From assembly GCA_965113315.1 (NCBI GenBank), contig OZ220370.1: a stretch of 64,000 nt of DNA; one strand, given 5' to 3'. Position 1 is the stretch's first letter. Every line of letters starts with the position of its first letter. Position numbers and translations under genes: made by a program. Shown here piece by piece: positions 275-53,368 of this stretch. Below the pieces are notes generated by a model that was given only the letters and a program-made list of their open reading frames with translations, had not been told where the DNA came from and did no database searches. Origin of the DNA: Podarcis vaucheri. Lineage: Eukaryota.

Positions 275-977
275 ACCTTCCAAGCTTTTTATATGCTGTT
301 TACCCCCAAACAGAAGCAGACAGTAGAAATCATTAGCTAAATAATGGTATGAAGATAGGATTTAAGGCTATGTAGACTGGCACCAAAGAAAATAACCCTA
401 ATACATTTAACACCTTTCTACTATTTCACACACCTTTTTCTCAAAAACAGAGCTTAGAAAAGCATTTCAGCAGAGCTTTTAACCGATGACTGAAGTTTTC
501 CGATGCACAAGTTAGTTTATTTATTTATTTATTGAAAAAGTAATGCCTCTTTTCCCCCTGAATGTTAAAATGGGAACCATAACACAAACGTTTTCTGAGT
601 AAATTCTCGGGATATAATTACAATTATTGAGAACACTCTGGTTTCTACCAGATGTTGGGTAAAAGAACAGAGCAAGAAAACTGTTTCCATTTTCTCTTGT
701 TATCAGTATCAAAACAATAGTTTCTGTTTTCATTGTGACAAGCAAACCCTTATTCACATCCTCTACACTGCAGAACAGTATAACAGAAGAGGCCTGAACC
801 TAAGTATGTAATAGAAGCAATGATAATCTTGCAGATAATCTTCCATTTTTAAGTGCATAAAATGCAAGGAAATAAATAATCACACACATACACACATGAA
901 AAAGCAGAATGGATCAATGATACAAATATAGCATTCTACTACTTCCTCATCTTTAGTACCCCTGCTAGAAGTTTGTA

Positions 978-1330
978 CAGGCAACTCTCCATTTACACAT
1001 GTTCTATTTGAGTGTGACCACACATACAGTGCCAGGAACCCAGAAGTGGATCCCAGAAATGGAGAGCACCCTGGAGAGCCTTCCTGGCTCATGTGGAGAC
1101 CCTCCCCATAGCCCATAGAGGATGCCCTTTTTGGGTTCTGTGAAGGGTCTCCTCTCGAGCTGGAAGCACAAGCAGGGCTTTGCAGAGGCCTCCTGTCTAA
1201 CAGCTGACATGGGGGTAGTGTAGCAGCCACTTTCCTGCATATCAGCTGTGTGAGCCGGAGGGACAACGTGGCTTGCTCAGCTGATGTGCGGGAAAGCTGG
1301 CCTATGAAAGGGAAATATGCTGATTGTACT
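978..1330. mobile_element. Old mariner/Tigger-like MITE remnant
   Basis: Starts TA-CAGGCAACTCTCCATTTAC; GC-richer than flanks; internal inverted repeat CTTTCCTGCATATCAGCTG / CAGCTGATGTGCGGGAAAG. Right end unclear. Confidence 0.35.
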
Positions 1331-1729
1331 ATCTGTGTACCTTTTGCTATCTCTATGACTGAACTGGTTAAAGAGAGGTAATTGGAAATTCATTGGCTAA
1401 AGGAAAGGCCTTGAAAAAATGAGTTTATACATTGTAAATTAAATAACACAAAAATGTTCAAAAAGCATCCTCATGGACAGGAGAAAATACTCCTGTACCT
1501 AAAAGTTAATTGACCACAACAGTTTCAACTATGCAATTCCTGCTCTGAGCATACTTTTATAATAAAACCTTTATGATAAGTATTCCCTAGCAATAAATAG
1601 TTCATCCATATGCACAGCAACAACCAGACTGGGCTGAAAGCACAACCTGTGACTTTAAAGTTACAAATATAATATATACTGGTGCTAACTAGTAGTCTCA
1701 TACCTTCTTCTCCTCCCTTCCCTTCTAAA

Positions 1730-2074
1730 AAAGGTAAGTCCAGTTGCGAACGACTTTGGGGTTGCGGCGCTCTTCTCGCTTTACTGGCCGAGGGAGCCAA
1801 CGTTTGTCCGCAGACAGTTTTTCTGGGTCATATGGCCAGCATGACTAAGCCGCTTCTGGCAAAACCAGAGCAGTACATGGAAATGCTGTTTACCTTCCCG
1901 CCAGAGTGGTACCTATTTATCTACTTGCACTTTGATGTACTTTCGAACTGCTAGGTTGGCAGGAGCTGGAACTGAGCAATGGGAGCTCACCCCGTCGTGG
2001 GGATTCGAACCGCCGACCTTCTGATCGGCAAGCCCTAGGCTCAGTGGTTTAGACCACAGCGCCACCCACGTCCC
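1730..2074 (-). mobile_element. Sauria SINE (near full length)
   Basis: Reverse complement begins GGGACGTGGGTGGCGCTGTGG (A box) and contains GGTTCGAATCC (B box); body matches the copies at 32659 and 45922. Confidence 0.93.
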
Positions 2075-2494
2075 TTCTAGAAAGTAAATAAAACAAAGCA
2101 CATAATGTCATCACATTGATGAGTGCCTCACTTCTGCAAGCCACATCCAATTAAGGTGGGAAGGTGGGATTCTCAACACAATGATATCACATCAGAGTTT
2201 CTCTTTCGCTCTCTCTAGACATTACCAGCAGAGAGAATATTAGGAGACACATCATTGAATGCCAGGTTCTGCCCACAACTGCACAATTTTATACAAATCA
2301 GTGCGGCAAGATTTAATATCTGTTGAGTTACAAAAATAGATAAAGCCAAAACAAGCCACTGTTATGGCCAAGTGAATAAAGTAAAATAAAACAAAACAAT
2401 CCAACTGCTACATTACTAAAACTTTACATAAAATAAGAGACTTGGCTTTGCTAAGTGTGTCTTTCTTTGCACAACTGTATTATACAAATCTCAC

Positions 2495-2808
2495 CATACC
2501 GAATTCCTTTCTACTATCTATGGCAACAGTAAATGAATGCCAGTTAAGTTGAATTCTCCAATTTGAGATGTAATCCTGCCAATATAAGCATAATATCCGA
2601 AAGCAAAGTTACTAGAATTTCCCTTCATATCCCAGGATGATTATTTAATGTTTCATAAAGAACAGTCTATGAATTTCCTGAAAACTTTACTGTTTTTGCA
2701 ACATCTGTAACTACTCAAAGCCTCCACTCTACACAATCATCACTATTCATTGAATGAAATAAAGGTTCATTGGTAACAGATATATAAGTACACAAAGCCT
2801 TCTGTACC
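2495..2808 (-). other. Probable non-coding (5' UTR) exon of a minus-strand host gene, tentatively NCOA1-like (unverified)
   Basis: Acceptor ctgac...cttttttactttcaatgcag|GG at 2808, with a weaker alternative ttttcag|GA at 2677. Donor ATG|gtgaga at 2495, alternative CG|gtatgg at 2500. Unique sequence with no long ORF. Gene guess rests on recollection only. Confidence 0.45.
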
Positions 2809-3097
2809 CTGCATTGAAAGTAAAAAAGTTTAATACGAAAGTCAGAGCATGAATTTAGTAAATGATTAGGTACCTCTGAAGAGACACAGCTATAGACAGA
2901 CAGACACTCTATCACAGTTGATAAATTAAGGCTGTGCATTTACTAAAGGTTGCTAAACAAATGCAAGCATAAAAATAATAAAGAGGTTGGGTAAGTAAAT
3001 AATACAATTTAGGTATATTTTGACAACTGTATCTAGGCCCAAAAGAGCCAACACTGGCTTTGGGCTACATCGTTCCACCAAAGAAATGTTTGCTATA

Positions 3098-3630
3098 CAG
3101 TGGTACCTCAGGTTATGAACAGCCTAGTTAACGAAGATTTTGGATTATGACCACTTCAAACCCGGAAATGAGTGTTTCGGGTTGCGGTTGTGGTTTTTTT
3201 GTGTACGAACCGATGTTCAGGGGTACCGCCACATTTTCCCATCCTCCAAGGCTTCTCTCTCCTTCCTCCATGAGCCTGGGAGGCCCCTGGGTTGTTGGTT
3301 CTTTGGCAGTGGCGGTGGGGGGAAAGCAGTGGGCAGTGGGTCAGGCATGGAAGGCGGAGAAGGAGGGCCGAGAGCGGCGGCGGCAGAGCTGCCACTGCAC
3401 AAAGGCACTTTGTTCTGCTTCAATAGGCAGCGCGATACCTCCCTTTCCATTGGAGCCGCCCCAATCCCATTCCTACTTGCGTGCAAGCAGGAGGGGGCAG
3501 GGATCCCTCAACTGGGAAGGGAGGCTTCGCACTGCATGAGAGATCCTTGCCCCCTCCTGCTTGCACGCAAGTAGGAGTTGGGATCGGGGCTGCTCCGATA
3601 AGCAGCACGAAGCCTCTCTTCACAGCTGAG
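3098..3630. mobile_element. Tc1/mariner-type MITE, left end plus GC-rich cargo, right TIR missing
   Basis: TA-CAGTGGTACCTCAGGTTA terminus shared with the 15071 family; GC/CpG-rich interior with a ~55-bp inverted repeat. Confidence 0.65.
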
Positions 3631-3998
3631 AGATCCTTATTCTTATGTCAGCACCCATGAGAGTTACTTAACCCATAGGGTTAAGCATGGGAATGCAGAA
3701 ATTTGCATACATTTGGATAATATTGTCTTCTCTCCCAGTGTTCCTTCCTTCTTTTTCACTCTGCCTTGGCCCAGCCCCACTCTCACAAAAACAAAGCAGC
3801 AACCAAAAACGAAATCCCATGACAGAGGCAGAAGTAAGGTATGGCATTTACTGAGCATGCTAGAGCAATTTATTTTCATCAGATGAAAATGAAATGCCAA
3901 TGTTTCAATTTGAGAAATGATCCAATTGGTTCTTCATTTATATAGAAAGGCACTATTTAATTCAATGTATCTGGTAGGGGCATTGATTCTGTTTAGTG

Positions 3999-4253
3999 CA
4001 GGGGTCAGCAAACTTTTTCAGCAGGGGGCCGGTCCACTGTCCCTCAGACCTTGTGGGGGGCTGGACTATATTTTTTTTTGGGGGGGGGACGATGACGAAT
4101 TCCTATGCCCCACAAATAACGCAGAGATGCATTTTAAATGAAAGGACACATTCTACTCATGTAAAAACGTGCTGATTGCTAGACCATCTGCGGACTGGAT
4201 TAGAAGGCGACTGGGCCGGATCCGGCCCCTGGGCCTTAGTTTGCCTACCCATG
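3999..4253. mobile_element. hAT (Charlie-like) MITE
   Basis: Termini CAGGGGTCAGCAAAC ... GTTTGCCTACCCATG; perfect 8-bp TSD GTTTAGTG (3991-3998 / 4254-4261). Confidence 0.9.
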
Positions 4254-4695
4254 GTTTAGTGATTAACTGTATGGTAAACAGGTTTATGTAAAATTAACCT
4301 AGTTGTTACTTACAATAAACTTTTTTTACAATAAAGATTCAAATTTTTTTTTAAATACAATTTGCCAGGAAACAAATCATCCCCCACAAGAATACAAAAG
4401 TTACCCAAATCTGATTTACACTGAATTAGACCCTAGCCTGGTTTTTGTTATCTATCATACACCAGTCACCTCCTATCTGAACTACAACAATATGTTGTAC
4501 ATAGGACAGTCTTTAAATATAGCGTGGAAGTTTCAGTTAGTTCAGAACACAGCTGCAAGATTGCTAAATGGGACAGGAAGGTATATCTCACTAAACCTGT
4601 ACAAGCTTCATAGGCTCCTAGTCTTTTTCCGATTCACATTGCTGTTGTTGTTTTTTTTTTTTTTACTTTTAAATCCATTCACAGCTTGAATCTAT

Positions 4696-4912
4696 TGCAG
4701 ATAGGTAGCCGTGTTGGTCTGCCATAGTCAAAATAAAAAAATTCCTTCCAGTAGCACCTTAAAGACCAACTAAGTTAGTTCTTGGTATGAGTTTTCGTGT
4801 GCATGCACACTTCTTCAGAAGTGTGTATCTGAAGAAGTGTGCATGCACACGAAAGCTCATACCAAGAACTAACTTAGTTGGTCTTTAAGGTGCTACTGGA
4901 AGGATTTTTTTT
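4696..4912. mobile_element. Penelope-like element (PLE) remnant with inverted terminal-repeat arms
   Basis: Begins GGTAGCCGTGTTGGTCTG; 77-bp inverted arms at 4743-4819 / 4828-4904 with 1 mismatch; 13-bp TSD AGCTTGAATCTAT (4683-4695 / 4913-4925); contains a hammerhead core. Confidence 0.8.
4825..4862 (+). ncRNA. Minimal type I hammerhead ribozyme motif (PLE-associated)
   Basis: GUAU-CUGAAGA-A-GUGUG(CAUG)CACAC-GAAA-GC-UC^AUAC. Complete CUGANGA and GAAA boxes, 4-bp stem I, 5-bp stem II, palindromic AGCU stem III, predicted cleavage after C4858. Confidence 0.75.
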
Positions 4913-5130
4913 AGCTTGAATCTATGTTGAAGGATCGATTGCCACCCTATGTACTTATCCAGACCTTGAAGATCTTCTCAAGCCCTTCCTTGGATGCTCC
5001 ACCAATTGAGGTGCAAGCCCTTCACAGAGGTTGCATCCCCGCTACAGACTGCCCTTCCCAGAGCAGACTCTCTGGTACCCACACTGATGTCATTTCTGTC
5101 ATTTATCCCATTCTGTCATTTATCCCACCT

Positions 5131-5274
5131 GTTAAATAGCTCTGCTGGTAAAGCATGAGACTCTTCATTTCAGAGTCGTGTGTTTGAACCCCACATTGGA
5201 CAAAGGATTCCTGCATTGCAGGGGATGGACTAGACAACTCACATGGTCTCTTCCAACTCTACAAATCTACGATT
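5131..5274 (+). mobile_element. tRNA-Lys-derived SINE with CR1-type 3' tail
   Basis: Head TAGCTC..GGTAAAGCATGAGACTCTT..CAGAGTCGTG resembles tRNA-Lys(CTT); tail GGACTAGA...CTTCCAACTCTAC..TCTACGATT resembles a CR1 3' end. Confidence 0.8.
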
Positions 5275-6455
5275 TCACAATGTCAAGTAAATATATTTTT
5301 AACTTATCAGGCAAGATGGGCCCAACTTTTTTAAATTACATATTTTTTTTATTATACTTAAGTATCTCAGTTCTAAATACCCTCATTTTCCTTTCCCTTC
5401 TTCATTAGTCTTGCCCCTCCTCTGTCCAAAAGATGGCCATAGCATGACCATTCCCCAGGAAAAGTTGTGAGTGATCAGCGATCGAATGCTGTAAAAGACA
5501 GCAAAATGTTAAAGATTCGTTTCAATTCACTATACCTCTCCCACACTGATTTTTATATAAACAACCTTAAAGCAATGTATTAGAAAAGGGAATGTGCCTT
5601 CCGCTGTCTGACTGAAAGCCAATAATGCTCATGAATTTTTTAGCTAACACACAGATGCCACTGGGAAGACAATGTAATAAACACATTAGGCAGCAAATGG
5701 GCAGCAGGAGCTCTTTACCACATATTGTAACCATCAGATACATGACTAAGATTCATGATCATGATTACTGGTACTTAAAAGCACATGCCTTAGCATCTCT
5801 GTCTCTAAAATAAAAGGCTTCCTTTCAAATACTGAGAACTTCAGCTCTGGCAAATCCAAATATCGTTTTTCTACTTTAAGCTATAACTACAACCAGGAAA
5901 AAAATTAGCTAGTCTGACATCAACACAAAATGGCTTCTAGTATCTGTATTCCCATACACTAAGGTTCTTAATATAGCTGTTCACTGAGCTGCTTACATAT
6001 TAGACTACGTCAGCCACCTCTAATAAGCCCCTCTAATAAGCCCCAAAATAGCAGGAGAAGGTTTTAACACCACAACAGAAAAGAAAGTTGCATTCTTTGA
6101 GTAATGTACAGGAATTTTGATTCAGTCTTCACTCATTCTGCAACTGATGCAAGGCATTTTGCTTGATCAAAAATCACAGCAAAAAGCCTGAATGCTTTTA
6201 AAAAGAAAAGTGAGGTCTGAGGAAGGGACCAACACAATCGATGTTAAGTCACGTAACTTCTTTTTTAAAAATCTACTGCTATTGCTGACAGCCATTTCAG
6301 ATACTCGTTTTACAAAATGACAATAAACAACAGCTGAATTATCGCAAGTCTTCCACTGAGAAGCCAGGAGCACTACAGAGATTATTGTGAGAACAAAATC
6401 CTTTTTCTTAACCACATTATAAACATGTACACTGTATTAATACGTCAAGACTACT

Positions 6456-6457
6456 GA

Positions 6458-6493
<36 letters not shown>

Positions 6494-6512
6494 AAAAGAA
6501 AGAAAGAAAGAA
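6456..6512. repeat. (GAAA)n microsatellite
   Basis: About 14 GAAA units with one interruption. Confidence 0.97.
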
Positions 6513-21733: not shown

Positions 21734-21865
21734 GGTAGGTAGCCGTGTTGGTCTGACGCAGTCGAAATAAATTTCAAAAATTAAAAAATTGTCCAATAGC
21801 ACCTTAGAGACCAACTAAGTTTGTTCTGGGTATAAGCTTCATTGTGCATGCACACTTCTTCAGAC
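21734..21865 (-). mobile_element. Penelope-like element remnant (single arm, degenerate hammerhead)
   Basis: Homologous to 4696-4819; imperfect TSD AGT(A/G)TTCCTTTGT(T/G)TA. Confidence 0.78.
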
Positions 21866-51297: not shown

Positions 51298-53368
51298 TTT
51301 TTATAAGATATTTATTAAGATTTTCAAAGTATTACAAAATAAAAATAAAAAAGTAAGAAAATACAAAATAAAAATAGTTAAAAACAACTCATTCTTTCCA
51401 TTACTTATTTTTCATTAGCTTATTTCCCGGACCTCCTCACACCTCCCTTTTTTGTATTCCAGTTCAGTTTGTTGGTTCAGCAAATCCTTACCCTCTTTGT
51501 TTATCCTAGTCTTTAATCTTAAGCTATTGTAACATTAAATTTTTACCTATTAATAATCCATTTTTCATATTCCTTTATAGTATTACAGCTGAAAACCCCT
51601 TAATTTCTATCCAACATCATTCTAACATTCATTAATTTTACAATATTTCTGTAAATAGTCTTTAAATTTCTTCCAATCTTCTTCCACCGACTCTTCTCCC
51701 TGGTCACGGATTCTGCCAGTCATTTCCGCCAGTTCCATGTAGTCCATCACCTTCATCTGCCATTCTTCCAGGGTGGGTAGATCTTGTGTCTTCCAATACT
51801 TTGCAATGAGTATTCTTGCTGCTGTTGTGGCATACATAAAAAAAGTTCTGTCCTTCTTTGGCACCAATTGGCCGACTATGCCCAGGAGAAAGGCCTCTGG
51901 TTTCTTCAAGAAGGTATATTTAAATACCTTTTTCAATTCATTATATATCGTCTCCCAGAAAGCCTTAACACTTGGGCACGTCCACCAAAGGTGAAAGAAT
52001 GTACCTTCAGTTTCTTTACATTTCCAACATTTATTATCGGGCAGATGATAGAGTTTTGCAAGCTTGACTGGGGTCATGTACCACCTGTATGCCATTTTCA
52101 TAATATTCTCTCTTAAGGCATTACATGCCGTAAACTTCATACCTGTGGTCCATAACTGTTCCCAGTCAGCCATCATTATGTTATGTCCAACATCTTGTGC
52201 CCATTTAATCATAGCAGATTTCACCGTTTCGTCCTGAGTATTCCATTTCAACAGCAAGTTATACATCTTTGACAGAATCTTAGTTTTGGGTTCTAACAGT
52301 TCTGTTTCTAATTTTGATTTTTCCACCTGGAAACCAACTTTCTTGTCCGAATTATATGCCTCCATTATCTGATAATAATGAAGCCAATCTTGCACTTTGT
52401 TTTTTAGTTTCTCAAAACTCTGCAATTTCAGTCTATCTCCCTCTTGTTCCAGAATTTCCCAATATTTTGGCCACTTGGCCTCCATATTGAGCTTTTTCTG
52501 TGCTTTTGCTTCCATCGGTGACAGCCACCTTGGGGTTTTGTTTTCCAATAAATCCTTATATCTTATCCAGACATTAAACAATGCTTTCCTGACAATATGA
52601 TTCTTTAATGCTTTATGTGCTTTGACCTTATCATACCACAGATATGCATGCCATCCAAATACGTTGTTAAAACCTTCTAAATCCAAAATGTCTGTATTTT
52701 CAAGAAGCAGCCATTCTTTCAACCAGCAAAAAGTTGCTGATTCATAATAAAGTTTAAAGTCTGGCAGGGCAAATCCACCCCTTTCCTTTGCATCAGTTAA
52801 TATCTTAAATTTTATTCTGGGCTTCTTGCCCTGCCAGACAAATCTAGAAATATCTCTCTGCCACTTCTTGAAGCAATCCATTTTGTCCACAATTTGCAAT
52901 ATTTGAAACAAAAACAGCATTCTAGGCAATACGTTCATTTTTATCGCAGCAATACGACCCAGCAGTGAAAGCTTCAAGTTTGACCAAATTTCTAAATCTT
53001 TTTTCACTTCGGCCCAGCATTTTTCATAGTTGTCTTTAAATAAATTCCCATTTTTTGCTGTCATATTAATCCCCAGGTATTTCACTTTCTTAACCACTGT
53101 CAAACCTGTCTCATTCTGAAACCTCTCTCTCTAGATCGGTGTTAAATTTTTCTCTAAAACCTTAGTTTTTAACTTATTCAGTTTAAATCCTGCAACCTGA
53201 CCAAATTCTTGAATCAGTTCTAAAACCCTTTTAGTACTAGATTCTGGCTCCTGTAATGTCAATACTAAGTCATCCGCAAATGCTCTCAATTTGTACTGTT
53301 TAGCTCCAACTTGTATACCTTTAACCAACTGGTCCCTTCTAATCATATTCAACAAAACCTCCAGGACC
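51298..53368 (-). mobile_element. 5'-truncated L1-clade LINE insertion
   Basis: 21-bp TSD GCACAATCTGCTTTATTATAT (51277-51297 / 53369-53389); ORF2 C-terminal half plus ~320-bp 3' UTR. Confidence 0.93.
51622..53355 (-). CDS. LINE-1-like ORF2p fragment (RT C-terminus to Cys-rich domain), one in-frame stop, no native start
   Basis: ORFs 53131..53355 and 51622..53103 are in the same frame, separated only by TAG at 53133-53131. Motifs: RAFADD, GFKLN..KT, KYLG, GGFALPD, CWKC...HLWWTC. Confidence 0.9.

Follow-up and report, generated by a model that had tools for sequence, protein, structure and literature searches.

Background

Minimal type I hammerhead ribozymes were described in metazoan Penelope-like elements (PLEs) by Cervera and De la Pena (2014, PMC4209133). 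Those ribozymes and the family analysed here share the core, an extra base between positions 9 and 10.1, a G10.1-C11.1 pair, a 4-bp helix I, a palindromic helix III, a location in the pLTR, thousands of dispersed copies and opposite-strand pairs 100-700 bp apart. The described ribozymes, reported there in fish Neptune elements, turtles and snakes, cleave weakly as dimers. With respect to them, our family has a shorter helix II (5-6 bp) that is a perfect palindrome, and its copies are nearly invariant, as in a young burst.

The closest biochemical system is the Poseidon element PAc of the green anole (Frangieh et al. 2024, PMC11167929), whose protein in vitro cuts both strands and extends them. 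In that work, two internal start sites of reverse transcription define the tail, the uncleaved RNA is the template, with no reads at the cut, and ribozyme mutants left insertion unchanged; the authors do not connect the findings to head-to-head insertions. Our family resembles PAc as a lizard-type PLE with a hammerhead at the pLTR-ORF boundary, two internal start sites and an apparently uncleaved template, whereas it differs in its Neptune-type zinc-finger linker, in a ribozyme contained entirely in the 5′ UTR (ATG at +101, the A of TCAGTG being element position +1) and in its start sites, which are the T-tract and codon 10.

Insertions with inverted pLTRs (Arkhipova et al. 2013, PMC3846280; Craig et al. 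2021, PMC8557442) are, like ours, head-to-head, with a tail of 30-40 bp at one end, duplications of 8-10 bp and a TATA box and initiator in the pLTR. The two papers suggest self-priming or endonuclease resolution as their origin, whereas the counts given below point to two primings followed by run-off, and the insertion considered here comprises the transcribed part of the pLTR only. Non-LTR retrozymes (bioRxiv 10.64898/2026.07.22.740005) are likewise derived from PLE pLTRs, hammerhead-bearing and non-coding; they are head-to-tail arrays, whereas our copy is head-to-head, its family including one array of five units.

We call window the whole stretch of DNA analysed, 64,000 nt in length. An original prediction, made from the letters alone, had placed in it an intact and potentially active hammerhead within a Penelope-derived mini-element. 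In our reading, which we consider probable, this is the 5′-UTR hammerhead of a young Neptune-type PLE, and the copy in the window is likely an inactive passenger in a head-to-head insertion, likely twin-primed on uncleaved RNA.

The hammerhead motif

The motif had been described base by base, and every base of 4825-4862 was found where it had been placed. Its features are:

4825..4862, plus strand: intact minimal type I hammerhead motif, with the consensus features given in PMC4209133; predicted cut after C4858
4825-4828 with 4859-4862, plus strand: stem I, GUAU with AUAC, a 4-bp helix I
4829-4835, plus strand: core CUGAAGA
4836, plus strand: A, the unpaired base between 9 and 10.1, not mentioned in the original prediction
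4837..4850, plus strand: stem II GUGUGCAUGCACAC, a 14-nt palindrome that folds as 5 bp and a CAUG loop
4851-4854, plus strand: GAAA
4854-4857, plus strand: AGCU palindrome, the reduced helix III
4858, plus strand: C17

The core CUGANGA ... GAAA ... UH is present, with C or U at position 17 across the element family, and the G10.1-C11.1 pair is G4837-C4850. Helix II has 5 bp and a 4-nt loop by folding, or 6 bp by complementarity, which is slightly short of the published range of 7-8 bp. On all sequence tests save this slightly short helix II the motif is a PLE minimal hammerhead, as had been proposed, a parent-type element is present in the genome (see below), and the proposed cut after C4858 agrees with the motif layout. 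The ribozyme adds one more family to an already described class.

The exact 38-mer has 7,715 copies in the genome (0 for the reversed control), which bears out the predicted genome-wide dispersal. In the window the loose core pattern had 8 matches, with 5.0 expected, and the 33-mer had 0 matches in 100 shuffles. The shuffles of the 33-mer, the genome copies against the control and the stem covariation between families together show that the motif is not due to chance. Folded alone, the 38-mer is unremarkable (z -0.44). The Rfam search of the window gave no family at the gathering score, and among 24 weak matches at 4300-5400 there was no hammerhead model. A microRNA precursor was considered and rejected (best 62 bits, against a gathering score of 90 for MIR1222); these were generic hairpin matches.

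Layout of the insertion

The motif lies in an insertion of 217 bp with head-to-head arms and a 13-bp target-site duplication:

4683..4695, unstranded: target-site duplication, left copy, exact direct repeat of 4913-4925
4696..4819, minus strand: left arm, tailed, element +7 to about +131, 95% identical over 125 nt to the full-length copy L171
4785..4822, minus strand: defective second hammerhead, which retains its core and stem II but lacks the 5′ strand of stem I, removed by the junction
4820..4822, unstranded: three extra bases at the head-to-head junction; the centre varies from copy to copy
4823..4912, plus strand: untailed right arm, element +2 to about +91, with the T-tract as its end
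4913..4925, unstranded: target-site duplication, right copy, exact 13-bp repeat

The tail of the left arm (about 4696-4734) consists of the first 10 codons of the element ORF. In the minus-strand hammerhead a substitution at 4792 also destroys the AGCU palindrome of helix III, and the promoter region upstream of +1 is missing from the insertion. All features of the inverted insertions of EN+ PLEs are present, namely head-to-head pLTRs, a tail at one end and a target-site duplication. A non-LTR retrozyme was rejected as a description of this locus, as it needs at least two complete head-to-tail units and the window has one intact copy with a partner on the opposite strand.

The parent element

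Long copies extend upstream into a GIY-YIG frame; scores were obtained for 150 of 7,201 candidates, with identities of 95-100%. The full-length copy L171, a partial tandem, has an intact ORF of 910 aa for a reverse transcriptase with GIY-YIG (L171:3882-6614). Its protein matches RVT_1 (E 3e-12), with YIDD, and GIY-YIG (E 3e-5, residues 808-855), preceded by a CX4CX2C linker at residue 770. A second open frame, of 880 aa, is found at L172:3377-6019. U at position 17 and A at +76 mark the two copies as members of a minor subfamily, and LINE-like sequence surrounds each of them.

In element numbering, TATATAG is at -30, the hammerhead at +4 to +41 with its cut after +37, the T-tract begins at +85, the ATG is at +101 and the tail ends at +131. 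Hence the hammerhead sits in the pLTR of this element, wholly within its 5′ UTR. In PMC8557442, Neptune is defined by a C-terminal GIY-YIG preceded by a CX2-5CxxC linker, and the Neptune/Nematis layout given there matches L171, the CX2-5CxxC motif being present in Nematis as well. We consider the element a putative young Neptune-type PLE, one linker motif giving the clade assignment.

Covariation with other hammerhead families

Besides the window family, two older families with decayed hammerheads were found in the genome:

L181, L189, L196, L206: family B
L210, L211, L216, L221, L227, L228, L234: family C

Twelve candidates outside the window family were fetched, of which L220 (no pairing) was left out of the alignment; beside the remaining 11 there was no ORF. 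Stem II of families B and C differs in sequence, with UGUA or UGGA loops (4-nt or non-palindromic). All four family B loci resemble the 5′ UTR of the window family (E 2e-8 to 0.08), the single likeness by which family B may be linked to PLEs. L181 looks head-to-head too.

In an alignment of 13 rows from the three families, which count effectively as three independent families and in which the search pattern had imposed the core and the closing pair, 6 of 10 stem pairs changed on both sides, with a covariation score of 0.40 (0.18 when shuffled, at most 0.13 when slid). Hence stems I and II covary between the families. The original prediction had proposed stem covariation across copies as a check. 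Within the window family there is none: the fetched loci, which were partly chosen by exact patterns, hold about 190 instances of the motif, 126 of them identical and the rest with scattered changes or junctions. The check does not discriminate here, since the family is too young to covary. The covariation between families supports selection on the fold at the level of the element, rather than for the copy in the window.

Where the copies start and stop

To a sequence anchor downstream of the cut there were 11,785 matches genome-wide, of which 100 were listed. For the sample we took the matches listed first on contig C1 together with their partner arms, which gave 107 arms from 5.9 Mb of C1, all with an exact or near-exact anchor. 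Since the upstream reference ended at -185, longer arms were pooled. The 5′ end fell at -2 to +6 in 40 arms, at -3 to -40 in 5, at -41 to -184 in 10 and further up in 21; it fell at +7 to +33, mostly at head-to-head junctions, in 29 arms, at +34 to +42 in none and beyond in 2. Precisely, the 5′ ends of short copies cluster at +2/+4, and their 3′ ends at about +92 to +100 or at +127 to +140. The 13 nt upstream are kept in 3,005 of the 7,715 exact motif copies, point changes explaining part of the loss, and the upstream flanks of solo copies are unrelated. RNA reads from organism A, maybe a relative (about 12-26% of four runs), cease to match the reference at these positions too, namely +2, +4, +91 and +132 to +134.

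From the motifs and the DNA ends we infer that +1 to +4 is the transcription start, and the cluster would be read most simply as one defined 5′ end of the RNA, 30 nt below a TATA box. With such an end, the usual template would retain an uncut ribozyme, in agreement with the ribozyme mutants of PMC11167929. In the four RNA runs no read pile-up marks the start (one was listed, at -12, in one run), and none lies at the ribozyme cut; the latter is no evidence on cleavage, because ordinary libraries lose such ends.

The strongest of the competing explanations, although in our judgement an unlikely one, is that the ends at +2/+4 mark drop-off of the reverse transcriptase at stem I, or a splice acceptor. 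It is favoured by the 13 of 107 arms that begin at +4, the first base of stem I, by the acceptor-like TTTCAG before +3 and by the Drosophila Penelope intron, which ends at helix I (PMC4209133). However, structure should halt the enzyme on its 3′ side and not after read-through. An acceptor is at odds with the unrelated upstream flanks of the solo copies, which have no common exon, and no spliced joint into +3 was listed in the four RNA runs. The TATATAG at -30 also speaks against this explanation.

Matches starting at the cut site numbered 76, compared with 30 at +40 and 22 at +36, a small excess that concerns at most 0.6% of the anchors. Thirty of the 76 were preceded by AG, as expected of joins via stem I microhomology, and 8 such loci among 30 fetched were judged by eye to be joins of this kind; AT is self-complementary in itself. 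In the 50 listed of 52 loci with a small centre, both arms met at +38 in 12, at +39/+40 in 4 and at AGCU in 10. As a sign of occasional template cleavage, the excess is weak and ambiguous.

How the arms pair

Sixty-four of the 107 arms formed 32 head-to-head pairs, of which 28 joined a tailed arm to a T-tract arm, one joined two tailed arms and none two T-tract arms, three having a deleted or tandem end. Pairs of opposite kind thus made up 28 of 29, against 0.5 expected (P about 1e-7). Over all fetched loci, 30 of which had been picked by likeness to the window copy, 113 of 115 pairs had exactly one tail (107 scored, and 6 of the other 8 by eye). The one tail/tail pair of the sample lies in the region of L096, L097 and L098 (C1:5.16-5.20 Mb), insertions whose common flanks suggest local duplication. 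Duplications of 8-16 bp were present in 29 of 32 pairs, and in the control 19 of 992 mismatched flank pairs reached 8 bp.

If two RNAs were used and the site were chosen independently on each, half of the pairs would be of the same kind; this was not observed, hence either one RNA is used twice or the complex is asymmetric. The +76 variant is common to both arms in 8 of the 9 pairs that carry it, which would fit one RNA, two RNAs or gene conversion. Microhomology between priming site and target appeared present by eye; its count was noisy and centred near zero, and we make no claim of it.

Somewhat less likely than drop-off, in our view, is that the head-to-head copies arise when a single cDNA or antisense template primes itself or folds back, as proposed for rotifer Penelopes. 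The idea is already published (PMC3846280), and it is suggested by the palindromic junctions (157 loci centred on stem II, and AGCU in 10 of the 50 listed small-centre loci) and by some junctions, as at L039/L040, that read as fold-backs. Against it, among the 28 tail/T-tract pairs the T-tract arm was longer at the 5′ end in 15, the tailed arm in 8, and the two were equal in 5. In those 15 pairs, and in the window copy, each arm holds sequence absent from the other, and a single fold-back cannot make such pairs. Moreover, the outer ends fall on two start sites framed by one duplication.

Host gene and strand

The following features were found beside the window:

L137:2016-2285 and about L137:6370-6458: first two NCOA coding exons
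L140:5000-7000: CpG island, 5-7 kb right of the window, which may be the NCOA promoter

To the left of the window, and both on the minus strand, are a bHLH exon of the NCOA family at a distance of 7.7-8.0 kb (Pfam E 2e-31) and the start exon of the same gene at 3.5 kb. Among 225 frames searched against Pfam the NCOA exon was the single convincing match; a PDB search with it returned nothing. From its N-terminal sequence we take the gene to be NCOA2. If the CpG island is its promoter, the whole window would lie in 5′ introns of this gene, and the insertion likely lies in a 5′-UTR intron, transcribed on the strand of the broken ribozyme copy. Thus the intronic location originally proposed is likely, but the gene reads the strand opposite to the intact motif. 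RNA data queried with window positions 2500-6500 gave no match among those listed. Two exon-like stretches, 883-1389 (minus strand) and 3739-3833 (plus strand), have plausible splice signals and no protein match, and are possibly untranslated exons or chance; the 169-aa frame of 883-1389 had no homologue among longer proteins.

Fate of the window copy

Positions 4728-4819 form with 4828-4919 an inverted repeat of 92 bp, 96% complementary, which the original prediction had missed. Whichever strand is transcribed, the RNA is predicted to form a single long hairpin (-166 kcal/mol, z -24, 0 of 200 shuffles), and the predicted probability that the ribozyme stems pair within it is below 1e-18. These energies take no account of tertiary contacts, co-transcriptional folding or proteins. 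Owing to the hairpin lock, and because the host transcript is probably on the strand of the broken copy, cleavage at the window locus is unlikely, and by the folding model the copy is most likely silent. For genome scans this is a caution, since an intact ribozyme motif may be buried in its own antisense copy.

The two palindromes had been expected to aid dimerisation of the ribozyme, and AGCU is in fact the known dimer element of PLE hammerheads. For stem II the expectation is not supported: two stem II palindromes are predicted to form a 14-bp duplex of -28.0 kcal/mol, which outcompetes the double hammerhead (-11.1 kcal/mol) and leaves helix III as short as before, and families B and C lack such a stem II. 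Exactly at the centre of the stem II palindrome 157 loci are joined, and this palindrome appears to act as a site of DNA joining, rather than of a ribozyme-activating dimer.

An array of five head-to-tail units of 101-104 nt, each from about the start site to the T-tract and with an intact hammerhead, was observed at L131 (G000:C1:5631954-5632401). The array is retrozyme-like and was likely made by template jumps; shorter tandems occur at L066, L067, L075 and L126/L127. By nearest-neighbour energies the double-hammerhead fold in a tandem array has a predicted probability of about 6e-19, so the tandem layout by itself does not predict activity in the window family.

We therefore regard as improbable the view of the original prediction, that the window copy is an active self-cleaving intronic RNA dimerising via both palindromes. 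It has in its favour the intact core bases, the stem covariation among three families, and the cleavage of PLE hammerheads, which is weak in dimers (PMC4209133) and is also seen with the aid of protein (PMC11167929); in a transcript beginning inside the right arm alone, stem II is predicted at P 0.75. Nevertheless, the hairpin sequesters the motif, the host gene probably reads the strand of the broken copy, the insertion lacks the promoter upstream of +1, there is no tandem partner, and an active dimer would face competition from the stem II duplex.

Nor is the notion of a mini-element as a separate family supported, since the short copies, each with a junction of its own, resemble what the autonomous element would leave by run-off. 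That a non-autonomous fold-back element, either MITE-like or a palindromic master copy, spreads as the entire 217-bp unit is largely refuted and the least probable of all the explanations: it has the 92-bp inverted arms and 40 scored places 94-100% identical over nearly the whole unit in its favour, but both the centre and the T-tract end vary among the 30 closest copies, arm lengths range from below 100 to above 700 nt, duplications range from 8 to 16 bp, the tail is one-sided, palindromic RNA would be a poor template and the arms are plain pieces of the autonomous element.

Proposed mechanism

The reading that we prefer is twin priming with run-off at the start site, which we hold to be rather likely on the end counts and one in vitro paper. 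The endonuclease would nick both target strands about 12-13 bp apart, and reverse transcription would start from each 3′-OH, in one case at the tail site and in the other at the T-tract; most simply, both primings would use one RNA, with strand displacement. Both cDNAs would run off the RNA 5′ end some 90-130 nt later, and run-off after so short a distance would explain the excess of tiny copies. Their 3′ ends would then anneal via microhomology, often in the ribozyme stems, with short template jumps followed by fill-in. If the ribozyme acts at all, it would do so in the RNA of the element itself rather than at the window locus, and then slowly, in dimeric form or aided by protein.

In twin priming of the mammalian L1, both target strands prime cDNA, and a join by microhomology leaves an inversion. 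The L1 arms are adjacent and non-overlapping, whereas here both arms copy the same 90 nt, so strand displacement or a second RNA would be needed. A more specific form of our scheme, which we put forward tentatively and judge slightly more apt to fail than to hold, is that one uncleaved RNA serves twice as the template of a dimeric Neptune protein, the rear enzyme displacing the cDNA of the front one, with run-off at the capped 5′ end like the retroviral strong-stop. The hammerhead stems would then hold the two cDNAs together at their join, or receive the jumps from which tandem, retrozyme-like arrays are built.

If the one-RNA form were true, a single mechanism would explain the one-sided tail, the inverted pLTRs, the tiny copies and the birth of retrozymes; the genome would have been seeded with about 2,000-4,000 long RNA hairpins, and the ribozyme would cut a fraction of a percent of templates. 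A young and abundant family with an intact master ORF is a natural data set for counting insertion ends, and such counts make the origin of PLE inverted repeats and the role of the ribozyme in the template testable in the existing in vitro system. Among the papers listed in a search of the openly available literature, none dealt with twin priming in PLEs or with the window family.

Other features of the window

An older solo tailed arm of the same family lies at 21738-21864 (minus strand), with 80% identity, a degraded hammerhead and an imperfect duplication of about 12 bp. At about 5125-5260 there is a weak tRNA-like Rfam match (5131-5202, 21 bits, below threshold), and this region is presumably the head of a tRNA-derived SINE. 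Finally, an open frame of 502 aa at 51622-53130 (minus strand) reads like the C-terminal part of a LINE ORF2.
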